Shown here one piece after another: positions 3,515-27,162 of a DNA stretch of 28,955 nucleotides. The notes below the pieces were generated by a model. It did no database searches, was not told the DNA's origin, and saw nothing but the letters and a program-made list of their open reading frames with translations. The first letter of the stretch is position 1; every line of letters begins with the position of its first letter. Source of the stretch: Verrucomicrobiaceae bacterium (GTDB taxonomy: Bacteria; Verrucomicrobiota; Verrucomicrobiia; Verrucomicrobiales; Verrucomicrobiaceae); contig JANPIW010000852.1 of assembly GCA_031425215.1 (NCBI GenBank), positions 1 through 28,955 on the forward strand. The letters run 5' to 3'. A program made the translations under genes and the position numbers.

Positions 3515-3578
3515 GGCGGCGGATGAAATGAGCGCGGAGCGTAGCTGTGGAAGCGACGGCGGCAACTTGCGAGCGTCG

Positions 3579-4057: not shown

Positions 4058-4146
4058 GAAGCGGATGATAGAGGACACCGGTTTCATTTCAACTGACACG
4101 ATGGCGGCATTTCCCGTGGCTGCGGCATTGTGCCGCGGTCCGTCCT

Positions 4147-11813: not shown

Positions 11814-13300
11814 TCCTGGTAGTCTTCGTCGCGGGTGGATTTGAGCTGGCTGATGATGTTCTTCGCGATGCGGCGATCATCGAAGGGGGTGCGCTTGCCG
11901 TGGACTTCCTGGTAGGTCTCGTGGCCCTTCCCTGCGATGAGGACGATGTCGCCGTCGCGGGCGAGTTCGAGGGCGGCGCGGATGGCGGTTTTTCGGTCGG
12001 GGATTTCTCCGTGGCCGGCGCGGGTGAAGCCTTTTTTCGCATCGGCGATGATGGACTGCGGGTCTTCGGTGCGCGGGTTGTCGGAGGTGAGGACGCAGAG
12101 GTCGCTGCCTTCCTCGGCGGCGCGCGCCATGAGGGGGCGCTTGAGTTTGTCACGATCTCCACCGCAGCCGAACACGGTGATGATGCGGGAGGGCTTGAGC
12201 GCGCGGAGAGTGCGGAGCACGCTCATTATTGCGTCGGGCGTGTGGGCGTAGTCGACAAAAACCTGGCAGCGCTCTTTGTCAGTGATGCGTTCGAGGCGGC
12301 CGGGGACTTGCGGCGCGGCTTTGAGATGATTGATGCTCTCGCGGAGGTTGAGGCCCATGGCGTGAGCGGCGGCGATGACGGCGAGAGAGTTGGCGACATT
12401 GAAGTCGCCGATGAGCGGGATGCGCACGAGGAAGGAGCGGCCGCGCGCGTCGAGTTCGAATGTGGTGCCGCTCATGTCATAGCGGACGTTCGATGCGCGG
12501 AAGTCGAGGCCGTAGCCCTGGCCGTAGGTGCTGACGCGTTTGGTGTGTTCGAATTGTTTGATGAGCTTCCGGCCCCATGCGTCATCCGCGTTGATGATCA
12601 TCTGGCCTTTGCCGGCATCGGCGACGTTTTGAAACAGCAGTGTCTTGGCGGCGAAGTAGTCGTCCATCGTGCCGTGGTAATCGAGATGATCCTGCGTGAG
12701 GTTTGTGAAAATGGCGGCGGCGAACGGGATGCCGTGGGTGCGCTGCTGGTGGAGCGCATGGGAGGATGTCTCGATGGCGACGGCGCGGCAGCCGTTGGTT
12801 TGCATCGTGGCGAAGAGCGACATCAGCTCGAGCGACTCGGGCGTGGTGTGCGTGGCGGGGACTTGCTCACCGCCAAGGTCGTAAAACATGGTGCCGATCA
12901 ATCCGGCCTGCACTTGCGCGGCGTTGAGCAGGTAGTGAAGGAGAAAGGCGATGGTGCTTTTTCCATTCGTGCCGGTGATGGCGGCGATGCTAAGCGCGCG
13001 CTCGGGATGCGCGTAAAACGTGGCGGCGATCTGGGCGAGGGCGACGCGGGAATTTTTGACATGCACCCAGGGCACGGTGGCATCAGCGGGTGGGGCGCTT
13101 TCGGCGATGATGGCGGACGCGCCTGCTTTCAATGCGGTGGGGATGAATTCATTCGCGTCGAGCTTTGAGCCGCGAATGGCGACGAAGGCGGTGCCGGGGG
13201 CGACCATGCGGGAGTCGTACGCAATGGCGGTAATCTCGGTGTCGAGGCTGCCGGATGCGACGGGCTTGTCGAGATCGGTGATGAGATCGCGCAGGGTCAT
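11810..13300 (-). CDS. murE: MurE, UDP-MurNAc-L-Ala-D-Glu--2,6-diaminopimelate ligase.
   Basis: GTNGKSTIAF, and the DNPR motif (TSDNPRTEDP) typical of meso-DAP-adding MurE. The ATG at 13300 overlaps the ftsI stop. Confidence 0.85.
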   Translation of the reverse strand: MTLRDLITDLDKPVASGSLDTEITAIAYDSRMVAPGTAFVAIRGSKLDANEFIPTALKAGASAIIAESAPPADATVPWVHVKNSRVALAQIAATFYAHPERALSIAAITGTNGKSTIAFLLHYLLNAAQVQAGLIGTMFYDLGGEQVPATHTTPESLELMSLFATMQTNGCRAVAIETSSHALHQQRTHGIPFAAAIFTNLTQDHLDYHGTMDDYFAAKTLLFQNVADAGKGQMIINADDAWGRKLIKQFEHTKRVSTYGQGYGLDFRASNVRYDMSGTTFELDARGRSFLVRIPLIGDFNVANSLAVIAAAHAMGLNLRESINHLKAAPQVPGRLERITDKERCQVFVDYAHTPDAIMSVLRTLRALKPSRIITVFGCGGDRDKLKRPLMARAAEEGSDLCVLTSDNPRTEDPQSIIADAKKGFTRAGHGEIPDRKTAIRAALELARDGDIVLIAGKGHETYQEVHGKRTPFDDRRIAKNIISQLKSTRDEDYQE

Positions 13301-15168
13301 TGGGCGTCACCTCCCGGTGCATCCACGCGGACGACGAAGGAGCGCTCCGAGTGAACGGAGAGCTGATCGAGCGCTGCGCGCACGACCTCGGAGAAAATGG
13401 GCGCGGCGACGGTGCCGCCGAAGATGTCCTCGGTGCCAGCTTTCGGATCATCGACGACGACGACGCAGGCGATGCGCGGGTCCTCGGCCGGCGCGAAGCC
13501 TGCGAATGATGCGATGTAGTGGCCGTCTTGATAACCTTTCGTGGCCTCGTCGTAGCGCCAGGCGGTGCCTGTTTTACCGGCGACGGTGATGCCTTCGATG
13601 GCGGCTTTTTTTCCGGTGGTCTCGGTGACGACTTTGCAGAGCATCTTGTTGATCTGCGCGATGGTGCGCGCTTTGCAGATCTGATGCTGCGGCATGGAGG
13701 GTGTGACGCGGATGTTTTCTCCATCGGCGGAGACGACGCGGTCGATGAGTCGGGGCTTCATGAGCACGCCGCCATTGGCAAAGGCGCCGATGACCATGGC
13801 GAGCTGCAACGGTGTGACGCTGACCTCGTAGCCCATGGCCATGCGCGACATGGTTGTGCCGGACCAGTTGTCAAATTTCACGAGGCCGGTGCCTTCGCCT
13901 TTGAGACCAATGCCGGTTTTTTGTCCGAAACCGAAGCGCCAGATGTAGGCGAGGAAGTCGTCCTGGCCTACGGTGCGCGCGACTTTGTAGGCGCCGATGT
14001 TGCTGGAGTGGACGAGGATGGTTTCGACGCTTCCATTCGCGAGCGGGTGGTGATCGGTGAGTTTGATTTTTTGCGCCGGCTCCTCGTAGTAGCCGTTGTT
14101 GAGCGCGAATGAGGTGTCGGGCGCGACTTTGCCGAGATCGAGCGCGGCGGCGAGGGTGACGAGCTTGAAGGTGGAGCCTGGCTCGTACGGATCGGAGATG
14201 GCGAGGTTGCGGAGCATTCCGCTTTTGCTGTCGCGCTCGTAGTGCGGGCGGCTGGCCATGGCAAGGATGGAGCCGGTGCGCGGGTCGGTGATGATGATGG
14301 TGAGTTTTTTCGGCGACCAGATCGCGCACTGCTGCTCGATGACCTGCTCGACATAATCCTGGAGGCTCATGTCGATGGTGAGGTAGGTGTCGCTGCCGTG
14401 TTTTGGCTCGATGACTTTGCCGCGGTAGAGGGGCAGCTCGCGGCCTTTGTTGTCGCGCTCGATCCATTGCTCGCCGTCGGTGCCGTCGAGGTCGGTGTCC
14501 ATCATGGCCTCGACGCCCCATGCGCCGCCGTGGGAGAAATTCATGTCGCCGAGCACATGCGTGAGGCGCTCTTTTGCCGGGTAGGCGCGCTGGAATGTGG
14601 GGCGAAGATAGACGCCGGTGATGTGGCGCTCGGCGAGAAGCTTGCGCCAGGTCGCGGCTTCTTCGTCGGTGAAGATGCCTGGGAAAACGGTGACGGGTTT
14701 TTTTGACGCGAGCATCATGCGCGCAGTGTCGAGCGGCATCTGGAGATCGGGCGCGATCGTGGTGGCGACGTGCTCGCGGTAGGCGGCGTTGATCTGCTCA
14801 TCAGACATTTCTTTGCGCAGATCAGCGACGGTGGTGCCGCGGATGGTAGCGAGCTTGCGGCGCACGAGATGTTTTTCATCGAGGTGGACGCGGTCGATGT
14901 ACAACTCGTGGACGGTCTCGTCGTGGGCGAGCAGCTCGCCGTCGCGATCACGGATGGAGCCGCGATGCGCAGGGAGCGGCTGATGGAGCTGTCTCATGCG
15001 CGCGGCCAGCTCGGAAAACTCGGCGTGCTGGCGGACGTGAAGAAAGTACAGGCGCGCGGTGACGGCGGTGAAGCCGAGCACGAGCACGCTGGTGACGACG
15101 CACATGCGCGCGCGGACATGGCGGTCGCGTTTGATGATGTCGAGATTGGGTTTGAGCGGAGGATTCAC
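13297..15168 (-). CDS. ftsI: Class B penicillin-binding protein (FtsI/PBP3-type transpeptidase).
   Basis: N-terminal TM, a PBP dimerisation region, and transpeptidase motifs (STFK, SSN, KTGTA). The start is a GTG at 15168 in GTGA overlap with ftsL; an internal ATG is the alternative (MCVVTSV...). Confidence 0.8.
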   Translation of the reverse strand: MNPPLKPNLDIIKRDRHVRARMCVVTSVLVLGFTAVTARLYFLHVRQHAEFSELAARMRQLHQPLPAHRGSIRDRDGELLAHDETVHELYIDRVHLDEKHLVRRKLATIRGTTVADLRKEMSDEQINAAYREHVATTIAPDLQMPLDTARMMLASKKPVTVFPGIFTDEEAATWRKLLAERHITGVYLRPTFQRAYPAKERLTHVLGDMNFSHGGAWGVEAMMDTDLDGTDGEQWIERDNKGRELPLYRGKVIEPKHGSDTYLTIDMSLQDYVEQVIEQQCAIWSPKKLTIIITDPRTGSILAMASRPHYERDSKSGMLRNLAISDPYEPGSTFKLVTLAAALDLGKVAPDTSFALNNGYYEEPAQKIKLTDHHPLANGSVETILVHSSNIGAYKVARTVGQDDFLAYIWRFGFGQKTGIGLKGEGTGLVKFDNWSGTTMSRMAMGYEVSVTPLQLAMVIGAFANGGVLMKPRLIDRVVSADGENIRVTPSMPQHQICKARTIAQINKMLCKVVTETTGKKAAIEGITVAGKTGTAWRYDEATKGYQDGHYIASFAGFAPAEDPRIACVVVVDDPKAGTEDIFGGTVAAPIFSEVVRAALDQLSVHSERSFVVRVDAPGGDAQ

Positions 15169-15515
15169 GGCGAGGTGCGGGCCACGTCTGCTGTCGCGGG
15201 CGGCGGGATGGGCGGCAGGTAGATGAGCCTGTCTTTGGTGATGGGACGAAGGAGGGTGCGCGCATTGGCGAGACGTGGCTGCACTTTGTCGCGCGTGAGG
15301 AGGCTCTCGATGCGGAGGTCGAGTGCGGAGATTTCTTGATTGAGCAGTTTCACTTCTTTTTCGAGCTCGCGCTGCTGGTCGGAGAGCGCGTGGGCGAAGT
15401 TTTGATGATGCACCATGCCGAGGGCGATGCTGATGAGCACGGCGGTGACGATCACGAGCGCGATGACCGTGGGCAGGCGGATGCCGTTGCGATAGCGGTG
15501 GCGGTTGCGGCTCAT
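15165..15515 (-). CDS. ftsL: FtsL-like bitopic cell-division protein.
   Basis: 116 aa with a basic N-terminus, one TM (LPTVIALVIVTAVLISIALGMV) and a coiled-coil (QQRELEKEVKLLNQEISALDLRIESL). It sits between rsmH and ftsI. The ATG at 15515 overlaps the rsmH stop. Confidence 0.55.
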   Translation of the reverse strand: MSRNRHRYRNGIRLPTVIALVIVTAVLISIALGMVHHQNFAHALSDQQRELEKEVKLLNQEISALDLRIESLLTRDKVQPRLANARTLLRPITKDRLIYLPPIPPPATADVARTSP

Positions 15516-16453
15516 GGCAGTTTCTCTGCGGCGCGCAGTCGGGCGCTGCGCGAGCGCGGGTTGCGGTTGGATTCCTCGGGCGATGGCTCCTGCGGTTTGC
15601 GCGTGATGAGCCTCATGCAGTAGTCAGGATTCGGCCGCGGCTCAGGCCACTCGGGGCGGTCATTCATCTGCTTGCTCACATGATGAAACGCCTGCTTCAC
15701 GATGCGGTCTTCGAGGCTGTGAAATGAAATGGCGAGCAGCACGCCGCCGGGTTTCAACCAGCGCGGCGCGGCTTCGAGAAACTGCTGCAGCGCCGCCAGC
15801 TCATCATTCACCGCGATGCGCAGCGCCTGAAACGTGAGCGTCGCGGGATGACGGCGGCCTTTGCCGCGACCGATGGCACCAACGATCACGGCGACGAGAT
15901 CGAAGGTGGTGAGGATTGGGTTCTTATCACGCGCACGAACGATGGCGCGGGCGATGCGGCGGGCTTGCGGCTCTTCGCCGTATTCGCGCAGGATGCGCTC
16001 GATCTCGTCGGCATCCTCCATGTTCACGATGTCAGCGGCGGAGCGCGCGGCGCGTCCATCCATGCGGAGATCGAGCGGACCGTCGTGCTGAAACGAAAAT
16101 CCGCGCGCAGGCTCGTCGAGCTGATGACTCGATACACCGAGATCGACGATCATGCCGTCGAAGCCCGTCACGCCCGTCTCAGCGAGGATCTCGGGAAAGT
16201 GGCGGAAATTTCCATGCAACGCGCAGAAGCGATCACCGAAAGCGCTCAGCCGTTTCGAAGCGTGACGGATCGCATTCGCATCCTGATCCATCGACACCAC
16301 ACGCGCGCCCTCTTGCAGCAGCGCTTCGGAGTGCCCGCCCCCGCCGAGCGTCCCATCAAAAAACAAACGGCCAGGCGCGGGCCGGAAATATTTCACGACC
16401 TCGGCAAGCATCACGGAGTCGTGATAAAAATCGAGCTTGCCGCGCAGGCTCAT
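15512..16453 (-). CDS. rsmH: RsmH (MraW), 16S rRNA m4C1402 methyltransferase.
   Basis: HDSVMLAEVVKYFRPAPGRLFFDGTLGGGGHSEALL. The ORF track extends to 16756, but the upstream 100 codons are low-complexity G/D-rich with atypical A/T-ending codons, so the start is taken at ATG 16453. Confidence 0.8.
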   Translation of the reverse strand: MSLRGKLDFYHDSVMLAEVVKYFRPAPGRLFFDGTLGGGGHSEALLQEGARVVSMDQDANAIRHASKRLSAFGDRFCALHGNFRHFPEILAETGVTGFDGMIVDLGVSSHQLDEPARGFSFQHDGPLDLRMDGRAARSAADIVNMEDADEIERILREYGEEPQARRIARAIVRARDKNPILTTFDLVAVIVGAIGRGKGRRHPATLTFQALRIAVNDELAALQQFLEAAPRWLKPGGVLLAISFHSLEDRIVKQAFHHVSKQMNDRPEWPEPRPNPDYCMRLITRKPQEPSPEESNRNPRSRSARLRAAEKLP

Positions 16454-17226
16454 GTCCGGGTCCTCATCGTCGTCGGGCTGACCGTCATCACCACCGCCTG
16501 AAGAACGCTCACCAAACAACCCGCGCCCTCCGCCACCAGAGCCAGCGCCTGCATCGACCTGACCAAACCACGGCCAGCTCCCGACCTGCGAAAGCTGCCC
16601 GACACCTCTGACGAGTCGAGCAACCGCGCGCTCGATCTCGCCGAAAAGTGAAGGTTGATTCACATCCACTGGAGAAAAACCGGGCCATTTAGCTGTGATA
16701 CTGGTTTCCATAACGGGACTAAGGGTGATGAACTGTGAACTGGAGCCGGGTGGCATTTTCCATAATTTTTCAACAGTTTGGATGTCTTTATATCTAACCT
16801 GTCGAATTTTGGCAACGGCATTTTTTAGAAATTTCCGAATCGGCTGGGTTTGTCAGGCTCGACGGGCTGTGCCCGATTTTTATCACCCGAAGCATCTGCT
16901 GCCCTGATTGACGGCGTGAATCCGGAAGAAAGATTGGTTTTAATCTACCAAACTGGGGGAATACCGCCGTTCCAAGTCAACCACAAATTGTAAAAATCAT
17001 GGTCAACCCAATCCCTACGCCTCCCAGCAGGCCAACCTCTACGGCCCGACTTCCGACTCACAAGGCGGCGTCACGCAAATGGTCGTTCTGCACCTGGGCA
17101 AGACGAAGCCGTGGGTGTGATTCATGTCTGTGATGCTGTGGATTCATGCGGCGTACATCGTCGGTATGATGGTGTTTTCGGCCGCATTTGCCGCAGGCGT
17201 GAGCGGCCCCGCCAAAAAAAGACGGC
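16454..17226 (-). promoter_or_regulatory. Long AT-richer leader/promoter region upstream of the dcw operon; no mraZ.
   Basis: ~770 bp with no convincing ORF and a locally lower GC content (16700-17000). No MraZ-like translation appears in any frame. Specific -35/-10 boxes could not be assigned with confidence. Confidence 0.3.
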
Positions 17227-18075
17227 TCAAAGGTACCGCCGCAGCCGCTCGCGAACATCGTCGGCGAGGCGGGTGACGTAGCCGAGGGTGAATTCCTCAA
17301 CGCTCATCGCGTCGTCATGCACGAGGGGCGTGAGGTCCATGGCGAAATTTAGCAGGCTGCTGCCATCCGTGGTGTGCGAGTCAAAGTAGGTCGCGTTCGC
17401 GTGGCGCAGACCTTCCTCGGCGAGGTCGTAGCGCTTGCCGCCGGAGATTTGGGAATCAAACACACCGAGCAGCGGGCGGAGCATGTGCTGATGCTTGTCC
17501 ACTTTGAGCATGACCTTGTCCTCCGTGAGCAGCCAGTCGAGCTTCCGCCAGACCTCGCAGCCGTAAATTTTTGCGGGGCGCTGTTCTTTGGGAAGTGATC
17601 GCAGGGCCTCCAAGCAGCGGAGGAATGTGGCGACGTGGGTGTCGTGGCGGTCACAGGGATTATGCAGATAAACGACATCGGGCTGCGAATCGATGAGGAT
17701 CTGGCGCAAGTCGGCGCACACATCGCTCTTGAGTTCGTCCTTCAATTTGTCGCTCGGATAGCCGAGCTGGATCATAATGGAGTACTCGCCGACGTAGGCG
17801 GCCTTGCGCTGCTCGATGAGGCGGACCTGCTGCATCTCCTCGTCGGTGTAGTCTGCATACGGCCCTTTGCGCGGGCTGCCGGAGCCGTCAGTCACCACCA
17901 CGCCGCCGAACCATTGATCACCGCTGTGAAAGCACTCTATTATTCCGTGGTAGGCCGCGATTTCGAGATCGTCCTGGTGCGAGACGATGCCGAGATGTGT
18001 CACACGACTGAGCGCCTTGGTTTCATCTTGGAGTTCCGGGAGAAAGACATCGTGCTTCGCGTGACGCAGGTTCAT
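17227..18075 (-). CDS. PIG-L/LmbE-family N-acetylglucosaminyl deacetylase-like protein.
   Basis: VSHQDDLEIAA (HxDD-type motif) and VVYLHNPCDRHDTHVAT (the D..H.DH block of the PIG-L family). The first ATG after the flotillin stop is at 18075. Confidence 0.55.
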   Translation of the reverse strand: MNLRHAKHDVFLPELQDETKALSRVTHLGIVSHQDDLEIAAYHGIIECFHSGDQWFGGVVVTDGSGSPRKGPYADYTDEEMQQVRLIEQRKAAYVGEYSIMIQLGYPSDKLKDELKSDVCADLRQILIDSQPDVVYLHNPCDRHDTHVATFLRCLEALRSLPKEQRPAKIYGCEVWRKLDWLLTEDKVMLKVDKHQHMLRPLLGVFDSQISGGKRYDLAEEGLRHANATYFDSHTTDGSSLLNFAMDLTPLVHDDAMSVEEFTLGYVTRLADDVRERLRRYL

Positions 18076-18184
18076 TCTTGGAACTAAAGCGGTGAGGTGG
18101 CGATGCAAGGAGGAAGTTCCCGGCGCAGACTGCCGGTGAACTGCGAAGCCGGCAGGCTGCCGCAGTCCAAGGCGCTGGGCGCAA

Positions 18185-19726
18185 TCATGATGTCTCCTTG
18201 GCGCCTGATTTGTCCGTGCCTTGGAAATCTTCACGCAGAATCTCCCGCGCGGTTTTCTTCGCGCGTTCTTGCGCTGCATCGGGTTTGCCAAGGTAGGCCG
18301 GCAGCTCGACGCCGACATTTTTCGCGATCTCGTGCAGCGGCGGGACGGCGCCGACGAGGCCGGAGAGGAAATCGGCGGTTCTTGTTTTGCCGTCCTCGCC
18401 GACGCGGCCGGAGTCCCAGACGGTGATCTTGTCGATCTTCACGCCACTGATGGCGCGCATCTGCTCCTCGACGAGTTTCGGGAGCTGCTCCGTCACCATG
18501 AGCTGCGCGGCTTGCTCGGCTCCGCCGGCTGCGGCGATGATGGCTTTGAAGCCGTCGGCGCGCGCATTGAGCTGCGCGAGGGTCCCTTGCGCCTGGGCTT
18601 CCATGAAGGCTTTGAGACCGAGCGCCTCACCGTTTTTGAGCAGGCGAATTTTCTCGCCCTCGGCTGTGGCGGTGAGTTCGATGCGGCGTTTCTCGGCCTC
18701 GGCTTCCAGTTCGATGCGGACTTTCTCGGCCTCGGCGTGATAGCGGATTTTGCTTTTCTCGGCGTCGGCGAGGACCTCGATCTTTTTCTTCTCGATCTCA
18801 GCCTGCACGATGACGGTGGCGAGCTGCGCGGCTTCCTCGCGCTTTGCGCGCTGACGCTCGGCGATCTCCTCGGCCTTGTAGGATTCCTCCAGCGCTTTGG
18901 CGCTGGCGACTTTTTCGGCGGCGGTGCCGATGCGCTGCGCCTCGGCTTCGCGCTCGCGGCGGCTGGCGATGGAATTGGCGATCTGCACGGCGGCCTCGTT
19001 CTCGCCTTGCACGGCATTGGCGTGCGCGGCGGAGACGCGGATGCGTTTTTCGCGGTCGGCCTCGGCGGCGCCGATGTCGCCATCGCGCTCTTGATTGGCG
19101 ACTTTGATTTTGGCTTCGTTGATGGCGCGCGCGGCGGCTTCTTTCCCGAGGGCCTCGATGTAGCCGGACTCGTCGGTGATGTCCTGGACGTTGACGTTGA
19201 TGAGGCGGAGGCCGACTTTTTTCAGCTCGACCTCGACGCCGTTGGAGATGTTGGCGATGAGCTTGTCGCGGTCGGCGTTGATCTCCTCGATGGGCATCGT
19301 GGCGATGACGACGCGCATTTGGCCGAAGATGATGTCCTTGGCCAGCTCCTGGATTTGCGGCGCGGTCTGGCCGAGCAACCGCTCTGCGGCGTTCTCCATC
19401 ACGCCTGGCTCGGTGCTGATGCCCACGGTAAATGTCGATGGCGTGTTGACGCGGATGTTTTGCTGGGAAAGCGCGCCGCGGAGCTGGATGTCGATGGGCA
19501 TCGGCGTGAGGCTGAGGTACGCGAAGTCCTGGATGACAGGCCACACGAAGGCCGCGCCGCCGTGGTAGCAGCGCGCGGATTTTTGTCCCTGCACTTTTCC
19601 GAACACGACGAGGATGCGGTCCGACGGACATCTGCGGTAGCGCGAGATGAAGAACATGAAGAAGCCGAAGACGAGGACGGCGAGGATGCCGATGAGGACA
19701 GGGATGGAGAAGAGGATGTCGAACAT
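18185..19726 (-). CDS. Flotillin-like SPFH/band-7 protein (YqiK-type).
   Basis: N-terminal TM, an SPFH core, and a long E/A-rich coiled-coil (EAEAQRIGTAAEK...EAEAEKRRIELTATAEGEK). Confidence 0.8.
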   Translation of the reverse strand: MFDILFSIPVLIGILAVLVFGFFMFFISRYRRCPSDRILVVFGKVQGQKSARCYHGGAAFVWPVIQDFAYLSLTPMPIDIQLRGALSQQNIRVNTPSTFTVGISTEPGVMENAAERLLGQTAPQIQELAKDIIFGQMRVVIATMPIEEINADRDKLIANISNGVEVELKKVGLRLINVNVQDITDESGYIEALGKEAAARAINEAKIKVANQERDGDIGAAEADREKRIRVSAAHANAVQGENEAAVQIANSIASRREREAEAQRIGTAAEKVASAKALEESYKAEEIAERQRAKREEAAQLATVIVQAEIEKKKIEVLADAEKSKIRYHAEAEKVRIELEAEAEKRRIELTATAEGEKIRLLKNGEALGLKAFMEAQAQGTLAQLNARADGFKAIIAAAGGAEQAAQLMVTEQLPKLVEEQMRAISGVKIDKITVWDSGRVGEDGKTRTADFLSGLVGAVPPLHEIAKNVGVELPAYLGKPDAAQERAKKTAREILREDFQGTDKSGAKETS

Positions 19727-19745
19727 GGGAGGTGGGAGTGATGAA

Positions 19746-20327
19746 TTAGAGAGGCAGGAAAGTGATGACGGGTTTTACGATGAGGAGATTATCAGCCTCG
19801 ACGGCGATGACGTCGATGGCAGTGAGCGGCGCGAGGGCGGTGGCTGCGTCAGTGATGGCGCTGGCGGTGATGAGACGGCTCTGGAGCATGATCTCCACCT
19901 GACCCTGGCCGGTGCGATGCGGCGGGATGGTGACATAGACTTTGCCGCGCACACCGATCGCGTTTTTGTAATCGAGAGTGCCTTCCGATCGCAGAGAGAC
20001 GAGAAAACTCATCAACCCCGCGATCACGACCATGAAGATGCCGCCCGTGACAAGGGCCGCGACATGCACGCTGCCGGTCGAGAAGCCACTGTTCACCGCC
20101 AGCACTCCCGCCCAGCCAAAGCCGACAAAGAACGCGACGAGCGCGCGCAGGGAGAAAAACTTCGGCGCATGGCCGTGGTCACCATCCGCGCCGTCTCCGC
20201 CGTGGATGTTGTGCTCCGCGCCCATGACCGCGCCAAACATCAGGCATAGCTGCAGCACCGAAGCGAAGAGCGCTATCGTCCAGTAAAACTTGGCGACGGG
20301 CAGGAGCAGATACCACCACTGATTCAT
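19746..20327 (-). CDS. NfeD-like membrane protein (YqiJ-type partner of flotillin).
   Basis: Several TM segments with a C-terminal OB-fold-like tail (GVRGKVYVTIPPHRTGQGQVEI). It is immediately upstream of the flotillin gene. Internal ATG at 20327. Confidence 0.6.
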   Translation of the reverse strand: MNQWWYLLLPVAKFYWTIALFASVLQLCLMFGAVMGAEHNIHGGDGADGDHGHAPKFFSLRALVAFFVGFGWAGVLAVNSGFSTGSVHVAALVTGGIFMVVIAGLMSFLVSLRSEGTLDYKNAIGVRGKVYVTIPPHRTGQGQVEIMLQSRLITASAITDAATALAPLTAIDVIAVEADNLLIVKPVITFLPL

Positions 20328-20420
20328 AACGCTGGCCGTTGTAGCGGGTTTGGCACCGCGTTGCAAGCCCGCACCTGCTGCACTTTGCCCGTTATTTTGT
20401 AAGCAGGGCTGGCGTTAACT

Positions 20421-20458: not shown

Positions 20459-20644
20459 ATGACCGATCTCGTGCCAGTGACATGCCCTTCGTGCTTCGAG
20501 GTTTTCGAGGTCGCCGCCCCGGCTGTGGGCGAGATGCCATGCGATGTGGATTACGACTGCGAGGTCTGCTGCCGTCCCCTGCGCATCTGGTTCGAGGAAA
20601 TGGACGGCGAAGTCGTGGCGCAGGGTTACGGGCTGGGGGAGTAG
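20459..20644 (+). CDS. CPXCG-motif cysteine-rich zinc-ribbon small protein.
   Basis: 61 aa: CPSC...CEVCC with an acidic tail. Confidence 0.55.
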   Translation: MTDLVPVTCPSCFEVFEVAAPAVGEMPCDVDYDCEVCCRPLRIWFEEMDGEVVAQGYGLGE

Positions 20645-20737
20645 TCACTCTCAGCCGGGTGAAGAGCCGGGTGTTGCTGCCCATTGGACACTGAAGACGT
20701 GCTGCGGCGGCGGGGTGGTGGTGTCCAGCATGGAGGC

Positions 20738-20929
20738 ATGAGCACGGCAGCCATTGAACGTGAGTTGAAGAAAGTGCGCAGACGCTTGAAGACCCTGGAG
20801 GAACTCTTTGGTCAAAAACCCAAAGCCTCCTGTCGGGATGCATTTGGCGCGATGAAAGGCGACTCTCTGCACCGCGAGGCTGCCGCGCTCGGCGCGGCAT
20901 GGCGCGCAAAAGAGAACAAGCGTAAGTGA
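20738..20929 (+). CDS. Small VapB-like antitoxin candidate, partner of the downstream PIN gene remnant.
   Basis: 63 aa (MSTAAIERELKKVRRRLKTLEELF...). GGAGG lies directly upstream of ATG 20738. The stop is 4 nt before the PIN-gene ATG, with a GAGG between them. Confidence 0.4.
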   Translation: MSTAAIERELKKVRRRLKTLEELFGQKPKASCRDAFGAMKGDSLHREAAALGAAWRAKENKRK

Positions 20930-20933
20930 GGTC

Positions 20934-21250
20934 ATGTTTGCCGTCCTCGACACCAATCACTTCACGGGTTTTGCCGACGCCTCTGCTCTTGGTCGCAAGA
21001 TACTGCGGCGCATCGAAAAACAGCAGGCCGAGGTCTTCTCCTGCATCGCCGCCGCAAAGGAAACAAGCGCGGCTGGCTGGCTTTGATCAAGCAGCACAAA
21101 TCGGGACGGGACCAGCTTCACGCCTACTCCATGTTTCAGCAGGGAATCGAGACGAGGCCATTTGCATGGCACACGACACCACGTTGCTGACACGCAACTT
21201 CGCGCCGTTTCAGGGCATCTCGGGTCTGCGAGTGGCGAAACTGGCTGGAT
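20934..21250 (+). pseudogene. vapC: Degraded vapC (PIN-domain toxin) with a frameshift and an internal deletion.
   Basis: Frame 0 reads MFAVLDTNHF...AEVFSCIAAAKE and then hits a stop at 21086. The continuation KRGWLALIKQHKSGRDQLHAYSMF is in the -1 frame from 21062. The PIN C-terminal block DEAICMAHDTTLLTRNFAPFQGISGLRV is in a third frame, with ~25 aa of the expected middle missing and no terminal stop. Confidence 0.5.
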
Positions 21251-21570
21251 TGATCCCAGCCAGACCTCTCTTTCTTCCGCGCCCATTACCACTGGCACCA
21301 CACGCCTTCGGATCAAAACCTCAAGTCAAAGGCGGGACGCCTCGATCCATCGACAGGCGGGGACGCCTGTCCTCCGCTCCATCACAGCCCTTCGCTCTCA
21401 GCCGGGTGAACAATACGGTGCTGCTGCTGATAGGCACGGTGAAGACATGGCCTGGCAGCAGAAAGGGGATAGAGTGCTGGCAGCGACATGACGAGCTGGC
21501 AAGATCGAGACTGCGACCGTTAATTTTCCTATGTAACCTCCGTCATACCGTTTCCTCTTTGCAGGATGGC

Positions 21571-23496
21571 ATGAACACTCATCCACACTCTCTCTGCCCG
21601 CGCTGTGGTTCGACGCTCGAGGCTTCGGCCGTCGCGGGGCTTTGTCCAAAATGTCTGATGGTCCGCGCGGCGATGCAGACGGAGGACGCGACCGTGCCGG
21701 TCACTGCAGCGCCTGCGCCGACGCTGGATGAAATCGCGACTGCGTTTCCCGAGCTGGAGGTGCTGGAGATGATCGGACGCGGTGGCATGGGCGTGGTTTA
21801 CAAGGCGCGGCAGAAGTCGCTGAACCGGCTGGTCGCGTTGAAGTTGCTCGCGCCAGAGCGCGCGGATGATCCGCAGTTCGCGGCGCGCTTTGAAAAAGAG
21901 GCGCTGGCGCTGGCGGCGCTGAATCATCCGAACATCGTGACGGTGCATCAGTCCGCCAGGGCAGGCGGTTTTTATTTTCTGCTCATGGAGTTCGTCGATG
22001 GTGTGAATCTCCGCCAGGCGATGCGGGCGGGGCGCTTCACACCTGAGCAGGCGCTGGCCATTGTGCCGCCCGTGTGTGAGGCGCTGCAATATGCGCATGA
22101 CCACGGCATCGTGCATCGCGATATCAAGCCGGAGAACCTGCTGCTCGACAGGGAAGGCCGCGTGAAGATCGCTGACTTTGGGATCGCGAAAATTCTCGGT
22201 GCGGACGCGACCGAGACGATCTCGCAGCCCGCTGGCACACCACGCTACATGGCGCCCGAGCAAGGCAGCGGGGATGCGCGCGTAGATCATCGTGCTGACA
22301 TCTACTCCCTCGGCGTCGTGCTTTACGAACTGCTGACCGGGGAGCTGCCCTCTGCAAAGCTGGAGCCGCCCTCGCGCCGGGTGCAGATTGATGTGCGGCT
22401 CGACGAGGTCGTGCTTCGCGCGTTGAATGAGAAGCCGGAGCTGCGCTGGCAGACGGCGGCGGAGTTTCAGACTGGTGTGGAAACCGTGATCACGCGCCCG
22501 CAAACCCAGCCCGAGGCCCAGCAGCGGCTTTATCACGCGATGGGTTATCACACGCCGTGGGGACAGCGGTTGTTGAAGCTCTCGTTCATCGGGCTGCTCG
22601 GCTTTTTCGGCCTGGTGCCGGGGCTGGAGTTCATGGCCGTGTGCAGCGTCTTCCTCGTATTCATGGCCTTCGCGAGTTTGATCGAGTGGTGGCATCGCCG
22701 CAGTCAGTTGGATCGTGGGTACCCGGTCCGCAAATGGTGGCACAAGGCGCTCGTCACCGTGCTACTCGCCATCGTCATCGTCATCCCGCTGCGAGCCTGG
22801 GTGTTGCATCCTTTCTTCATCGCAGGCAATTCACTGGAGCCAGAGATGCCCGTGGGCAGCCGTGTGCTGGTCTGGAAGCTCACTCGACAGTTCGCGCCGG
22901 GCGACATCATCGCGCACAAGCACGGCGCGCGAGTGTGGGTGAGCCGCGTGGTGCGCGAGGGTGACGACCATCTCGTCACTCAGCGCAACCAGTCGCCCGA
23001 GGAGAAGCTGCCGCGCGCGGATGTCATCGGCAAAGTGGTGAGCGTGTACTGGCGCGCATCGCCCGCGCCGAAGAGCGCCGTGCTGCGTGCTTTCAAAAGC
23101 ACCGACTCTCCAATCTCCAAACAAGCCGTGCTCGATGGCGAAGCGTGGCGCGTGGATGCCGCCGAGGCGCAAGTTGTGAGCTTGTTCGAGCTGCCGCTGG
23201 CTGACATCGACGACTGCACGATCACTTACCGCGCCAAGATGAAATCGGAGGATGTGAAGGGCCGCGCATTTCTTGAGATGTGGTGCCGTGTGCCTGGCTT
23301 TGGCGAGAGCTTCTCGCGCGGCCTCGACAAGACCATCACGGGCACCAACAACTGGGCCAACTTTGAAATCCAGTTCTTCCTCAAGAAAGGCGAGAAGACG
23401 GATCAGTTGAAGCTCAACCTCAACTTCGAAGGCTCGGGTCGTGTGTGGATCAAGGATATTGAGGTGATCGCGAACGGCGCGGGCGTGAAACCATGA
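21571..23496 (+). CDS. Membrane Ser/Thr protein kinase fused to a signal-peptidase/LexA-like (S26/S24-type) domain and a C-terminal beta-rich domain.
   Basis: N-terminal zinc ribbon (CPRCG...CPKC). Hanks kinase motifs are present (GRGGMGVVYKA, HRDIKPENLL, DFG, APE). Three TM helices span residues ~333-410. Then comes HPFFIAGNSLEPEMPVGSRVLVWK...GDIIAHK...VSRVVREGDD...ADVIGKVVSVYW (residues ~411-496). The 856-aa track ORF starting at 20926 is a read-through artefact of the vapC remnant. The first plausible kinase ATG is 21571. Confidence 0.8.
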   Translation: MNTHPHSLCPRCGSTLEASAVAGLCPKCLMVRAAMQTEDATVPVTAAPAPTLDEIATAFPELEVLEMIGRGGMGVVYKARQKSLNRLVALKLLAPERADDPQFAARFEKEALALAALNHPNIVTVHQSARAGGFYFLLMEFVDGVNLRQAMRAGRFTPEQALAIVPPVCEALQYAHDHGIVHRDIKPENLLLDREGRVKIADFGIAKILGADATETISQPAGTPRYMAPEQGSGDARVDHRADIYSLGVVLYELLTGELPSAKLEPPSRRVQIDVRLDEVVLRALNEKPELRWQTAAEFQTGVETVITRPQTQPEAQQRLYHAMGYHTPWGQRLLKLSFIGLLGFFGLVPGLEFMAVCSVFLVFMAFASLIEWWHRRSQLDRGYPVRKWWHKALVTVLLAIVIVIPLRAWVLHPFFIAGNSLEPEMPVGSRVLVWKLTRQFAPGDIIAHKHGARVWVSRVVREGDDHLVTQRNQSPEEKLPRADVIGKVVSVYWRASPAPKSAVLRAFKSTDSPISKQAVLDGEAWRVDAAEAQVVSLFELPLADIDDCTITYRAKMKSEDVKGRAFLEMWCRVPGFGESFSRGLDKTITGTNNWANFEIQFFLKKGEKTDQLKLNLNFEGSGRVWIKDIEVIANGAGVKP

Positions 23497-24179
23497 ACTT
23501 TCACACCACCCGTTGGACGCTCGTGCTGCAGGCGCGCGGCGATGACACGACCGCGAAGCAGGCGCTGAGCGATCTTTGCGCCGCCTACTACGCGCCTGTG
23601 GTGGCGTTCATCACGCGCAGCGGGTTCGAGGAAAACGCCGCGCGCGATCTGGCACATGATTTTTTCGCGCGCTGGCTTTCACAGCAGCAGATGCTAAGGC
23701 CCGAGCGCGAGCATGGGCGCTTTCGCTCGTACCTCCTCGGCGCGGTAAAGCATTTCGTGTCTGATGCGCTCGATCATCAGCGCGCGCAGAAACGCGGTGG
23801 TGGAGCGGAGATCGTGCATCTCACGGACACGGGATCAGCGCTGCCGGAGGATGCGGCGCTCGCGTCGGATCGTGCATTCGACCGGCAATGGGCGTTGACC
23901 GTTTTGGAGCGCGTGATCGCGCAGCTCGCGGCGGAGTTTGATGCCGCGGGAAAGGCCGCGCATTTTTCTTTGCTCAAAGCATGGCTTACTGGGGACGAGG
24001 GTGAGGCCACGCAAGCGCAAGTGGCGGCGCGACTCGGCACGAACGAGGGCGCGCTGAAGGTTTCGATCCATCGGCTGCGCAAACGATTCCGTGATCTCAT
24101 CAAAGCCGAGGTCGCTCACACCGTGGGCAGCGAGGTGGAAGCGCGCGAGGAACTGACGCATCTGCTGGCGGCGATGTGA
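23493..24179 (+). CDS. ECF-type sigma-70 family factor.
   Basis: 228 aa. The N-terminal TTRWTLV motif is typical of PVC-group kinase-associated ECFs. Region 2 is LCAAYYAPVVAFI...; the region-4 HTH is QAQVAARLGTNEGALKVSIHRLRKRFR. Its ATG overlaps the kinase stop (ATGA). Confidence 0.8.
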   Translation: MNFHTTRWTLVLQARGDDTTAKQALSDLCAAYYAPVVAFITRSGFEENAARDLAHDFFARWLSQQQMLRPEREHGRFRSYLLGAVKHFVSDALDHQRAQKRGGGAEIVHLTDTGSALPEDAALASDRAFDRQWALTVLERVIAQLAAEFDAAGKAAHFSLLKAWLTGDEGEATQAQVAARLGTNEGALKVSIHRLRKRFRDLIKAEVAHTVGSEVEAREELTHLLAAM

Positions 24180-24275
24180 CGCGGTGACCGAGATGGGGAG
24201 CTTATTTTTTCTTCACGACTGTTGGCAATGCCGAGAGTACTTGGGCAGGATTCGAAGCCTTGGCCGCAAGCTTGA

Positions 24276-24566
24276 TCAGGTGGTCCAGCGCTCCTGCCAC
24301 TCAAAGTGCGCGGCGTGCATGTCGTCAGGCCACTCGTGCGGGTGCACGAGCTTGGGCGGGTCGAGCGCGTAGAGGAAATCAGGGCGCGTCGGATGCTTTG
24401 GAAGCTCACCCATGAGCGGCGCGACGTGATGCACCTTGCGCCCGAGCAGCCACTCGATGGTTCTCTTGGGTTCCTTCAGGGCCAGCAGCTTGATGATGTT
24501 GTCCGTCGCACGCACCGTTGTGCGTGCTGCACGGGGGCGGGGATGTCGCTGTGCGGGCTTTGCCAT
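24276..24566 (-). CDS. Hypothetical 96-aa protein.
   Basis: ATG start, mixed-composition sequence (DNIIKLLALKEPKRTIEWLLGRKVHHVAPLMGELPKHP...). It is convergent with the sigma gene and divergent from the lipoprotein gene. No family was recognised. Confidence 0.3.
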   Translation of the reverse strand: MAKPAQRHPRPRAARTTVRATDNIIKLLALKEPKRTIEWLLGRKVHHVAPLMGELPKHPTRPDFLYALDPPKLVHPHEWPDDMHAAHFEWQERWTT

Positions 24567-24666
24567 GCGCGCTGTTTACGCCAGTGCGAATGCTCGCGCA
24601 AGAACACGCCGGCCATCCTTTTGCCCGCTTTGCTTCGCACCATCCATCCTCTATGATGGTCGCACC

Positions 24667-25182
24667 ATGAAAGCCACCTCACTCCTATTTTGCGTCGTGA
24701 TTCCGCTGTTGCTCGCCTCGTGCTTGTTCAAGGACCCCGTTTTCACCGAGGGCTTCATCAAGACGGACGACAGCATCGTCGGCGTATGGGTGATGGAGGA
24801 GGAGATGGCCGATATGGAGAAAGCCGATCTCGCCGCATGCTTCAAAGTGGACGACAGCCATTACATTCTGCATTACCCGGCACAGAAGAAGGACGGCATG
24901 TATTTTGACGCGCAGCCGCTGAAAGTGCGTGACCGTGAGCTGCTCCAGGTGCGCGCGCTTGGCTCGCTGAAGGATCGTCCGGTGAGGGCAGGGGACAAGG
25001 AAGTGTTCACTCTCATCTGGATCGAGAAGCTGGCCGCCGGGAAACTCAACGTGCGCCCGCTCAACGGGAAGCTGGAGAAGAAGGCTCCGGCCGAGCTTCG
25101 GAAGATGATCGAAGATCCGGGGAGTGATTGGAACGAGCTGTTTGTGGAGGCGAAGGTCTTCAAGAGAATCTCAAAGGAGTGA
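24667..25182 (+). CDS. Lipoprotein.
   Basis: The first ATG after an artefactual 5' extension. Signal peptide plus lipobox: MKATSLLFCVVIPLLLASC. 171 aa. Confidence 0.55.
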   Translation: MKATSLLFCVVIPLLLASCLFKDPVFTEGFIKTDDSIVGVWVMEEEMADMEKADLAACFKVDDSHYILHYPAQKKDGMYFDAQPLKVRDRELLQVRALGSLKDRPVRAGDKEVFTLIWIEKLAAGKLNVRPLNGKLEKKAPAELRKMIEDPGSDWNELFVEAKVFKRISKE

Positions 25183-25215
25183 GGAACTGAAGCCTGTCCT
25201 TCCCGTCCGCGCGCG

Positions 25216-27162
25216 ATGCCTGTGTTTCCACGATCTTGGCTGACGGCTTTTCTGGCCGCCGCCTTTGTCGCGGTCATCGCGTTTCGTTACGCGGAGCCGA
25301 TCTCTGATGGCGATCTATTCTGGCACATGGCGTATGCGCGGCAGATGAGCGAGAGCGGCTCGCTAGTGTTGGATCACTCGATCTACTCATGGACGCCAGC
25401 CAGCAACCGCATGATCTACTGCGCGTGGGCCGCGGAGCTGGAGCTGCGATGGCTGTGGGAGAATCTCGGATTGTGGAGCCTCTTCTGCCTGCGCTACGCG
25501 GTCATTCTTTTCTGCGCGTGGTTGTTTTGTGATTTTGCGCGGCGGCTCGGTCTGGCGCGTCTGCCCGCGACGTGGCTTGTGCTGCTCATCACTGCGCTCG
25601 TGTCCGTGGCGGGCACTTTGATCAAGCCGGAGCTTTTCTCGCTGCTCTTCATGTCCGCGCTCGTCGTCGTGTTTTATCGGGGCAAACATGCCACGCTCAC
25701 CGGTGGCAATACCGTGCGCTGGTTTTACGCCGCGCCGATCATCATGCTGTTGTGGGTGAATCATCATGGCGCGTTCATCCTCTCCGCGCCGTTCCTCCTG
25801 GCGACGGCGCTGGGTGAGGGCATCGCGCTGCGCTTTGGCAAAACCGGCGCGCTGCCGGCGCGAGTGTATGCGCATCTCGTCGCGGCTTGGGCGCTGTGCG
25901 GCGCGGCCACGCTGATCACGCCTTATGGCGCGCGTTATCCAGCGCAGCTTTTTGCCGACTACGTCCTGCATCGCACACCCCGGCCTGATGCGGCGTGGAA
26001 CCAGGCTTATCAAACCATCTTCCACGAGAGCGCGCAGGGCGGGCACTTTGTCGGGTCCATGATCGTGATGCTCGCCCTGCTGCTCACGGTCATCATCATG
26101 CGCGCGCGTTCCGCGCCGCGTGGCGCACGGTTCGACTGGACCACGGCGCTGGTGAATCTCGCTTATGTGCCGCTCTACATCATCTGGCTGCGCACCACCT
26201 GGGTTTGGGCACCGGTGTTCGCGTGCAGCTTTTTCTTCTCGCTCTGGCAGGCGCGGCAATGGCAGGCGGCGCCGGACGAAGCGCCGAAAGTCAGACGCCT
26301 GCCAATGCTGGCATCATCTTTGGCCGTCATCGCATATGTTTTCATCGGCGCGCGCGGCGTGATGGATGCGTGGCAACGGCCGGACTCGTGCAGTTGGATG
26401 GGTTTTGGTGTCTCGTGCATCAATCCCGTAGCGGAGGCGGAGTTCGTTTCGAAATCAAAGCTCGGCCCGCGCCTCATCAATCTCTTCGACGGCGGCGGCT
26501 ATCTCCTCTGGCGGCTCTGGCCGCAATGCCAGGTCATGGTGGACTCGCGCTCGTTTCCTTACCTCGACTGGTTTCAGGAGCAGTATGACTTCGCCCACGG
26601 CAGACACTTTGAAGAGTTCATCGCCAAATATCCCGCGGACACCGCTGTCATCGATCTCACCAAGGATCTCTGCTGGCGGAAGTTTCTTCGCGCTCCGGGC
26701 TGGCGGCCGGCTTTCTTCGGGCCGAGCGCCGTCGTCTTTGTGCGCGACTCGGTGAAGTCTGACCAACTGACCGTCGATGTCGCTCCCCATCGCTTTGAAG
26801 AACTCCGCAGCGCGGATGCCGCTGTGCGGGCGTTCTGGTTTGCCGCAGCAATCGCGGATTTCAAAACGGCGTGGCAGTTGCAAAGCGCGCTCGATACCCG
26901 CCTGCGTCGCCAGGTGCTGGAAACTGATGCTCTTTCAGCACAACGGTATCGCGAGGCCCACGCCGCTCTCCGCTCGGGCGACTTTGCACGCGCGGACCGT
27001 TTGTTTCTCGCCGCGCTCACCCCGGAGCGCATGTCAGACCGCGACAGGCTCATCCGCACCTTTCTCGATGGCATGGCGACCATTGCGAGAGAAGGCCGTC
27101 CACCCGCCGAGGCCGAGCCGCTCAAAGCCGCGCTCGCACGGCTGGCGGCTCCTGAGTCTTGA
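25216..27162 (+). CDS. Polytopic membrane protein (~11-13 TM) with a helical-repeat C-terminal domain; possibly a GT-C-fold (ArnT/PMT-like) glycosyltransferase.
   Basis: 648 aa. An acidic motif in the first loop (EPISDGDLFWHMAY) and many TM helices are followed by a soluble Ala/Arg-rich C-terminus. The family call is tentative. Confidence 0.55.
   Translation: MPVFPRSWLTAFLAAAFVAVIAFRYAEPISDGDLFWHMAYARQMSESGSLVLDHSIYSWTPASNRMIYCAWAAELELRWLWENLGLWSLFCLRYAVILFCAWLFCDFARRLGLARLPATWLVLLITALVSVAGTLIKPELFSLLFMSALVVVFYRGKHATLTGGNTVRWFYAAPIIMLLWVNHHGAFILSAPFLLATALGEGIALRFGKTGALPARVYAHLVAAWALCGAATLITPYGARYPAQLFADYVLHRTPRPDAAWNQAYQTIFHESAQGGHFVGSMIVMLALLLTVIIMRARSAPRGARFDWTTALVNLAYVPLYIIWLRTTWVWAPVFACSFFFSLWQARQWQAAPDEAPKVRRLPMLASSLAVIAYVFIGARGVMDAWQRPDSCSWMGFGVSCINPVAEAEFVSKSKLGPRLINLFDGGGYLLWRLWPQCQVMVDSRSFPYLDWFQEQYDFAHGRHFEEFIAKYPADTAVIDLTKDLCWRKFLRAPGWRPAFFGPSAVVFVRDSVKSDQLTVDVAPHRFEELRSADAAVRAFWFAAAIADFKTAWQLQSALDTRLRRQVLETDALSAQRYREAHAALRSGDFARADRLFLAALTPERMSDRDRLIRTFLDGMATIAREGRPPAEAEPLKAALARLAAPES

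Follow-up and report, generated by a model that had tools for sequence, protein, structure and literature searches.

A Verrucomicrobial receptor-type Ser/Thr kinase with a putative pseudo-signal-peptidase domain, encoded in overlap with a divergent ECF-like sigma factor

Sigma factors of the extracytoplasmic function (ECF) type are linked to Ser/Thr kinase genes in several classification groups, namely ECF43 and, beyond it, ECF59-62, ECF217, ECF267 and ECF283. Control by such kinases is a recently proven route of transcriptional signaling that has been worked out, in the literature examined, only for ECF43 members: in Vibrio, Xanthomonas and Hyphomonas the sigma factor is phosphorylated directly by a Hanks-type kinase, the DAED sequence of region 2.2 being replaced by (S/Q)TTA, whose second Thr switches the protein on when phosphorylated (PMC13147305, PMC8999054). 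The phosphosites of EcfK further include functional residues of the σ2-σ4 linker (PMC13147305), and kinase-linked groups other than ECF43 may work differently (PMC8999054). Here we analyze a 28,955-nucleotide stretch of Verrucomicrobiaceae DNA (contig JANPIW010000852.1, assembly GCA_031425215.1; hereafter the window), in which the gene for a 641-residue transmembrane Ser/Thr kinase overlaps that for a divergent ECF-like sigma factor. The kinase carries, beyond its membrane anchors, a domain of the S24/S26 peptidase fold that appears to have lost its general base and a distal domain with the predicted fold of a carbohydrate-binding module (CBM), whereas the sigma factor does not bear the ECF43 signature. 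We consider it probable, with appreciable room for doubt, that the two genes specify a ligand-sensing receptor kinase and a cognate sigma factor activated by it through phosphorylation.

The elements of the locus are as follows, in window coordinates and all on the forward strand:

21533..21558, +: ECF-type promoter-like motif, GTAAC (21533-21537), 15 nt, TCCTCT (21553-21558); conserved in orthologous loci
21571..23496, +: receptor Ser/Thr kinase gene, 641 amino acids (whole open reading frame, stop included; from translation)
21595..21654, +: cytoplasmic Cys4 zinc ribbon, residues 9-28, CPRC-x12-CPKC (motif search)
21757..22464, +: Hanks-type kinase domain, residues 63-298 (Pfam Pkinase, PF00069)
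22570..22695, +: hydrophobic hairpin of two predicted transmembrane helices, residues 334-375 (Kyte-Doolittle scan)
22735..22803, +: third transmembrane helix, residues 389-411, anchor of the S26-like domain (hydrophobicity scan; AlphaFold2)
22804..23061, +: S24/S26-fold domain, residues 412-497, probably periplasmic; S421 aligns with the nucleophile, S458 with the Lys/His base
23068..23493, +: CBM-like beta-jelly-roll domain, residues 500-641, probably periplasmic
23493..23496, +: ATGA overlap of kinase stop and sigma start (from the sequence)
23493..24179, +: divergent ECF-like sigma gene, 228 amino acids, PF07638-related (from homologues and family-level Pfam matches)

The Pkinase match (179.3 bits against a cut-off of 31.7, E 1.2e-52, residues 63-298) is accompanied by an NCBIfam match of the PknB type (E 6e-82, under the equivalog cut-off) and by a complete set of catalytic motifs (GRGGMGVV at 69-76, VALK at 88-91, HRDIKPEN at 182-189, DFG at 202-204 and APE at 228-230), which are intact throughout the family. 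The N-terminus of the 641-residue protein, MNTHPHSLCPRCG, starting at 21571, agrees with those of family members (MxT..CPxCG), and the pattern CPxCG...CPxC, which here comprises the ribbon cysteines C9, C12, C25 and C28, also begins most full-length members and, by tblastn, related loci. Two competing reading frames were rejected: an 856-residue frame opening at 20926 is an in-frame upstream read-through over the remnant of a PIN gene, with the family N-terminus lying at 21571, and a long antisense frame (21529-22743, −) faces a kinase frame with a 1e-52 Pfam match.

Past the kinase domain, the 42-residue hairpin has a Pro-Gly turn at its center and is kept in three relatives (P0001, P0004, P0005; relatives carry P numbers as proteins and L numbers as loci). 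The third helix appears in the AlphaFold2 model at residues 10-32, which correspond to residues 389-411 of the protein, and the Pfam Peptidase_S26 match takes it in, beginning at residue 392. The loop between hairpin and third helix contains six Lys/Arg residues. This positive-inside loop, the anchor helix of S26 type and the signal peptides or lipoboxes found on stand-alone homologues of the last domain together lead us to infer that the C-terminal ~230 residues lie in the periplasm. The overall layout of zinc ribbon, Hanks kinase, three transmembrane helices, S24/S26-like domain and beta-rich C-terminus had been proposed for the 641-residue product in an earlier, model-generated note made from the nucleotide sequence, and is upheld by the reading frame, Pfam, the hydrophobicity scan and AlphaFold2 alike.

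Profile and structure comparisons agree on the fold of the juxtamembrane domain. Its matches to Peptidase_S24 (24.8 bits, cut-off 23.3) and Peptidase_S26 (25.0 bits, cut-off 22.9) both lie narrowly above threshold, residues 394-490 also match NCBIfam sigpep_I_arch (E 2e-4), and the top Foldseek matches are S24 domains of the LexA/cI/UmuD type (6a2q, TM-score 0.61, 27% identity over 90 columns), so that the S24/S26 similarity proposed earlier for approximately residues 411-496 stands. A profile of seven sequences of the domain, run against PDB sequences, returned Streptococcus pyogenes SipA (4n31, E 6e-6) and LepA (4k8w) as best matches, followed by Staphylococcus aureus SpsB. In the SpsB alignment S421 (GNSLEPEM) falls on the nucleophilic Ser and S458 (VWVSRVV) on the catalytic Lys (DYVKRVIG); in that to compact SipW-type peptidases the same two residues fall on the catalytic Ser and the catalytic His (ITHRI), respectively, and the Asp of the S26B ‘GDAN’ box pairs with the Arg of the window protein’s ‘QRN’. 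Across 152 aligned family members the general-base position is occupied by Gly (117), Ala (18), Ser (15) and, once, Lys, in a protein that has Asp at the nucleophile position. The latter position is Ser in only 64 of the 152 and Ala in 67 (Gly in 7, Cys in 6), and thus appears free of catalytic constraint, while the loop that bears it is strongly conserved as PE-x-P-x-GS, with P, E, G and S invariant. Unlike S26 enzymes, the domain has no cap, and in compactness it equals the C-terminal domain of LexA.

Judged by these residues, the S24/S26-like domain is a pseudo-peptidase whose general base has been lost. Self-cleavage or proteolysis by it is very unlikely, because the base is replaced, all but one of the 152 family members lack Lys there, the nucleophile position varies, and the closest solved relative is itself inactive: SipA has substitutions (Asp, Gly) at its catalytic positions and no peptidase activity, with a signal-peptidase-like peptide-binding cleft nevertheless kept (PMC4049620). 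The earlier note had offered two readings of this module, and they part company here: a ‘self-cleaving/peptidase-like’ component of a ‘proteolysis-plus-phosphorylation’ unit is opposed by S458 at the Lys/His position and by the family counts at base and nucleophile, whereas the second option, a pseudo-peptidase, fits the absent general base.

The architecture is neither rare nor confined to the window. A word-indexed search with the C-terminal half found 13 relatives only; an exhaustive profile search of 1.84 billion representatives of 50%-identity clusters found 2,226 at E≤1e-3, 265 at E≤1e-10 and 57 at E≤1e-30, and architecture was surveyed in the best 150 of these matches. In at least 90 of the 150 a Hanks kinase precedes the S26-like domain, in most cases with the CPxCG zinc ribbon ahead of the kinase, the remainder being mostly fragments or versions of ~120 residues that consist of a transmembrane helix and the domain; Pfam scans of nine long members gave Pkinase together with Peptidase_S26/S24 in eight. 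The domains that follow (or precede) the dead peptidase domain vary, comprising DUF4019, PDZ, the SecDF P1 head, an HlyD-type barrel-sandwich, Big_5 and the CBM-like fold, the last in a form similar to the window’s in only 4 of the 150. Since the dead domain recurs with the kinase while its distal neighbors change, we regard it, on comparison of these sequences, as the constant juxtamembrane periplasmic module of a modular receptor-kinase family. When one genome for each GTDB species was scanned with a pattern from a narrow alignment (A4), whose reach extends to close relatives only, 16 loci emerged, one labeled ‘bacterium’ and 15 labeled Verrucomicrobiota, the latter from Chthoniobacteraceae/Chthoniobacterales, Verrucomicrobiales and subdivision 3 and including one labeled Akkermansia. 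The same scan also gave four loci of Clostridial metagenome-assembled genomes (L024-L027), which encode true SipW-type peptidases. Such kinases carry the NCBI label ‘protein kinase’, and the precomputed Pfam matches of the window’s own protein (P0290) already list PF00069, PF00717 and PF10502. In a 2024 survey of kinases of the Planctomycetes-Verrucomicrobia-Chlamydiae (PVC) superphylum, a supplementary table likewise has an accessory-domain row labeled ‘Signal peptidase, peptidase S26’, in which every Planctomycetota column shown reads zero (PMC11032199). The suggestion that this was not a described architecture therefore holds only in part: the combination is abundant and on record in Pfam and in that table, yet, apart from the bare table row, we found no discussion of it in the portion of the literature searched.

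The distal domain completes the putative sensor. Residues ~500-641 are confidently predicted by AlphaFold2 to form a beta-jelly-roll of CBM type (CBM22/70/16/15/4/61), with structural matches at 6-20% sequence identity, and in light of this fold a glycan ligand may reasonably be supposed. Verrucomicrobiota are known for polysaccharide degradation, and a distal domain of this kind hints at glycan sensing in the phylum. Its profile search returned at least 1,566 homologues, nearly all unannotated stand-alone proteins of ~175 residues. Those inspected (P0007-P0012, P0287-P0395) mostly have a signal peptide or lipobox and are without a Pfam match; one named homologue comes from Thermodesulfovibrionales, one is fused to tetratricopeptide repeats (TPR; P0006), and in L029 the gene of one neighbors that of a monofunctional peptidoglycan transglycosylase.

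The partner gene belongs to a large and divergent sigma family. Among 18 sampled homologues, at E≤0.01, Sigma70_r4_2 was matched in 17, Sigma70_r2 in 13 and PF07638 (‘ECF sigma factor’) in 10, and a profile of the family gave weak matches (E 0.02-0.04) in PDB to regions 2 and 4 of Mycobacterium tuberculosis SigE and to other ECF sigma factors. The homologues number 6,394, and all those with a source name are labeled Verrucomicrobiota. Kinase and sigma gene stand in this order, overlapping or abutting, in L001-L004, L006/L007, L011 and L013, the overlap being again 4 nt in L003 and 1 nt in L006/L007; in nine genome-scan loci the order is reversed, with the sigma paralogue immediately ahead of a kinase gene of the same orientation; and overall a sigma homologue adjoins the kinase in 11 of the 13 Verrucomicrobial genome-scan loci where the kinase is visible. 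No anti-sigma family was matched among the neighbors of the pair that were scanned. This conserved linkage makes a functional kinase-sigma pairing well supported, and the gene overlap noted earlier at the ATGA (23493-23496) is confirmed in the window and recurs, as overlap or tight adjacency, in its orthologues.

How the kinase might act on the sigma factor is a separate matter. Aligned to M. tuberculosis SigE, the window sigma reads AARD in region 2.2 (residues 49-52): the ECF43 signature is absent, DAED having become AARD with Arg at the position of the ECF43 phospho-Thr. Family-wide, R51 is conserved in 98%, position 52 is Asp/Glu in 100% and position 56 is Asp/Glu in 92%. A sigma factor without the ECF43 phospho-switch would therefore depend on a different activation site or mechanism, and the earlier statement that kinase-governed ECF sigma factors are established in the PVC superphylum needs qualifying on the same grounds, direct phosphorylation having been reported, in the literature examined, only for ECF43 in the three genera named above. 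The near-invariant Ser/Thr residues are T5, T6 and T9 of the TTRWT motif, S79 and, in the linker, T111, whose position is Ser/Thr in 94% of the family and is followed by Ser/Thr/Asp/Glu in 91%. Because linker phosphosites are functional in EcfK and T111 is near-invariant, this residue of the σ2-σ4 linker is, by analogy, the first candidate phospho-acceptor.

The DNA ahead of the operon carries a promoter-like motif. Across L003, L004 and L013 the 40 nt in front of the kinase start codon are conserved and the motif keeps its distance from that codon, the farther-upstream and flanking DNA not being conserved; the conserved stretch follows the consensus TGTAACC-N-TCCTCT-N-AGGATG(A/G)CATG. GTAAC-N15-TCCTCT occurs once in the window, as the operon’s own site (0.02-0.17 chance matches expected), so that the window contains no further copies that might mark regulon members. 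Across the window and related loci, GTAAC is found 28-71 nt upstream of 21 of 24 sigma/kinase gene starts, against a background of 1.5-3.3% per interval searched, and the second element, 15 nt past GTAAC, is shared by the sigma and kinase genes within a locus but changes from locus to locus (for the L loci, positions are those of the whole GTAAC-N15 motif):

Window group: TCCTCT, at 21553-21558
L008: CCCCAAGG, at 4070 and 4824
L009: ACGTCAGG, at 1684 and 2828
L010 and L016: (G/C)CGTAT, at 2157 and 2962 (L010) and at 3541 and 4346 (L016)
L014: TCTCCAAGG, at 3584 and 4350
L023: CGCTTAATC, at 3416 and 4586

GTAAC-N15-CGTAT is the textbook layout of an ECF-type promoter. Locus-specific second elements are what one would expect if each sigma paralogue drove its own gene pair with its own -10 specificity, and the pattern looks like a set of paralogue-specific promoters that would keep many sigma/kinase pairs insulated from one another. 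A sigma-70 promoter scan of 21000-25300 and an Rfam scan of the window returned no match.

Taking these observations together, we propose that the locus is one of a large paralogous Verrucomicrobial family of two-gene signaling modules, organized here as a single, translationally coupled operon. The distal CBM-like domain would bind a ligand, probably a glycan; the pseudo-peptidase would serve at the membrane surface as a scaffold or dimerization and transmission module; and ligand binding would turn on a kinase domain that is catalytically competent by its motifs and preceded by a cytoplasmic zinc ribbon. The kinase would then phosphorylate, and so activate, the sigma factor at a non-ECF43 site, for which T111 and T5/T6/T9 are candidates, and the sigma factor would in turn drive its own operon from GTAAC-N15-TCCTCT, plus a further regulon. 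Although we favor this arrangement of glycan-sensing receptor, dead-domain scaffold, sigma phosphorylation and autoregulation as probable, several observations weigh against it. With D52 and D56 kept and a near-invariant Arg at the phospho-Thr position, the ECF43 mechanism cannot, as far as the alignment goes, simply be transferred to this sigma factor, which taken alone also stays under every curated cut-off (r4_2 16.6 against 25.7, r2 15.3 against 24, TIGR02937 34.6 against 42.9). Residues 497-641 match no Pfam family at E≤1 and no family of the CAZy type, and the neighborhoods of the stand-alone CBM-like homologues offer no consistent functional clue. The scaffold or dimerization role draws on analogy with LexA and cI: S24 domains double as dimerization modules, those of LexA and cI dimerize, and the dead domain is constantly juxtamembrane. 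Only 12 nt separate the -10-like element from the kinase ATG, so that the mRNA would be nearly leaderless, unless the motif does not act as a promoter at all. Finally, the kinase genes of L001 (2481-4024), L002 (47-2765) and L004 (3635-6011) are interrupted by splits or frameshifts, the L001 copy missing its N-terminus and being split ahead of the transmembrane region and the L004 copy being frameshifted within the S26-like domain, which may reflect errors of metagenome-assembled genomes or of assembly, or else decaying paralogues.

Of the alternatives, the one that fares best, unlikely in our view and yet deserving of attention, is that the kinase does not phosphorylate the sigma factor at all: it may instead hold it at the membrane in the manner of an anti-sigma factor, through the zinc ribbon or the kinase domain, or act on another substrate, the gene linkage reflecting co-expression. 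Loss of the ECF43 phospho-Thr together with retention of D52 and D56 would accord with a sigma factor that binds RNA polymerase intrinsically; if so, another negative regulator would be needed, no anti-sigma gene being visible beside the pair, and the conserved Cys4 ribbon at the kinase N-terminus could be drawn on for such a role. A 20-residue Cys4 ribbon is, however, not an anti-sigma domain fold, and the kinase keeps every catalytic motif intact across the whole family. The latitude that non-ECF43 kinase-linked groups have to act differently (PMC8999054) again speaks for this alternative, and the near-invariance of sigma Ser/Thr residues, among them a linker Thr analogous to the EcfK phosphosites (PMC13147305), speaks against it.

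It is also doubtful, if conceivable, that the sensor is the dead signal-peptidase domain itself, its retained groove binding extended peptides at the membrane surface and reporting the state of secretion or of the envelope, with the distal domains tuning or localizing the receptor; candidate ligands would be unprocessed signal peptides, secreted pre-proteins or a specific partner. SipA keeps a signal-peptidase-like peptide cleft despite loss of its dyad (PMC4049620), and within the present family the dead domain is constant where the distal domains vary, its PE-x-P-x-GS loop is conserved in a way that suggests binding more than mere spacing, and versions of ~120 residues consisting of transmembrane helix and domain stand alone. 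Set against this, the ligand is purely hypothetical, the domain has no S26 cap and is as compact as the dimerizing LexA C-terminal domain, and folding or contacts within a dimer could explain the conserved residues equally well. The fuller version, in which such a peptide-groove receptor signals through the Hanks kinase to a paralogue-specific ECF-like sigma factor at a non-ECF43 site, strikes us as rather improbable; if true, it would establish ‘pseudo-signal-peptidase receptor kinases’ as a large family in Verrucomicrobiota whose sigma partners are insulated and autoregulated. That the domain is, lastly, an active or self-cleaving peptidase joining regulated proteolysis to phosphorylation can hardly be right: the fold is genuine and S421 is retained in GNSLEPEM, similar to box B of S26 enzymes, but S458 stands opposite both the SpsB Lys and the SipW-type His, the only Lys at the base among 152 members comes with an Asp nucleophile, Ala replaces the nucleophile in 67, the ‘GDAN’ Asp has given way to Arg in ‘QRN’, and SipA, the best solved sequence relative, is similarly substituted and without peptidase activity (PMC4049620).

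The surroundings of the kinase-sigma pair include the following genes, of which the first two are part of a division/cell-wall cluster in the upstream context (13297-20366):

13297-15168, −: penicillin-binding protein of FtsI type
15512-16756, −: MraW
17227-18318, −: PIG-L family deacetylase
18185-19726, −: flotillin/Band_7 protein
19746-20366, −: 206-residue membrane protein without Pfam match
24664-25182, +: 172-residue predicted lipoprotein, lipobox LLASC, without Pfam match; 71% identical to its L003 neighbor
25216-27162, +: 648-residue polytopic membrane protein without Pfam match

Between the membrane protein gene and the kinase lies an apparent 1.2-kb gap containing a 61-residue reading frame (20459-20644, +) with a Pfam Cys_rich_CPXG match (26.5 bits, cut-off 25.2) and a vapB/vapC-like toxin-antitoxin remnant (20684-21300, +). 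The latter is composed of an 81-residue frame (20684-20929) followed by one of 50 residues whose start weakly resembles a PIN domain (E 0.07); by eye, the C-terminal half of the PIN domain continues in the kinase frame, and it is because of this shared frame that the spurious 856-residue frame arises from 20926. A hairpin and T-rich stretch at 21241-21263 may terminate the upstream gene remnant. Downstream, the 485-bp spacer between sigma and lipoprotein gene (24180-24663), which holds a 96-residue minus-strand frame (24276-24566), looks like an insertion, since the corresponding L003 spacer measures only 116 bp. The lipoprotein and 648-residue genes are also called downstream of an identical sigma gene on a Logan contig (L028) and were not seen in the more distant related loci; the lipoprotein gene, although conserved in L003, was rejected as a part of the module, L001 and L004 having other genes after sigma.

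Compared with the ECF43 pairs, the Verrucomicrobial family is much larger and unstudied: its sigma homologues run into the thousands and its kinase clusters into the hundreds. Its constant dead domain adds a Gram-negative, signaling-linked case to the few pseudo-signal-peptidases such as SipA, and its matched, locus-specific promoter-like elements offer a testable handle on the insulation of many paralogous pairs within one cell.

Among characterized systems, the closest in layout are EcfP-PknT of Vibrio parahaemolyticus and EcfK-PknS of Xanthomonas citri, which share with the window pair a transmembrane Hanks kinase with a sensor region that is periplasmic there and probably so here, its adjacency to an ECF-type sigma factor and the absence of an anti-sigma gene. 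In both, the kinase activates the sigma factor by direct phosphorylation. The window pair differs in its AARD with Arg, its retained D52 and D56, its N-terminal zinc ribbon, its gene overlap and its Verrucomicrobiota lineage. The sensor part of PknS is made of TPR, that of the window kinase of the dead S24/S26 domain and the CBM-like domain. Other receptors with extracellular modules, namely PknB with its PASTA domains, PknD with its beta-propeller and the CBM-carrying RsgI proteins of Clostridium thermocellum, employ domain families different from those of the window kinase; unlike the RsgI anti-sigma factors, moreover, the kinase provides the output here in place of an anti-sigma domain, and its CBM-like assignment comes from a predicted fold.

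For the dead domain itself, SipA and LepA of S. pyogenes (4n31, 4k8w) offer the nearest likeness, an S26 fold on a transmembrane anchor with a substituted catalytic dyad. SipA, however, stands alone as a protein, is encoded in sortase-pilus loci of Gram-positive bacteria and has a small cap, whereas the window domain is a bare core without cap, set inside a diderm receptor kinase and followed by further domains, with no sortase or pilin genes among the kinase neighbors scanned. The S24 domains of LexA, lambda cI and UmuD have the same compact core and likewise no domain II; theirs are cytoplasmic and parts of DNA-binding fusions, in contrast to a membrane-anchored and probably periplasmic domain that has neither the Ser-Lys dyad nor a cleavage-site region. 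With the SipW/Sec11-type (S26B) enzymes of Clostridia (L024-L027) it has its C-terminal strand in common (AVIGKVISVYPR against DVIGKVVSVYWR), at 32% identity over 85 residues. Those enzymes retain Ser (GSMAPTL) and His (ITHRI), the latter replaced by Ser in the window protein, and the strand motif (A/D)VIGKV(I/V)SVY(P/W)R that they share with the dead Verrucomicrobial domain hints that this domain arose from an enzyme of S26B type and from neither LepB nor LexA. Kinase/ECF-sigma pairs, receptor kinases with variable sensor domains and inactive signal-peptidase homologues of Gram-positive pilus loci are thus all already known; what is new, or undiscussed in the literature searched, is that a large Verrucomicrobial family combines them and that the sigma partner is unable to use the ECF43 switch. 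The locus introduces no new principle and is best described as a well-defined variant of these systems.

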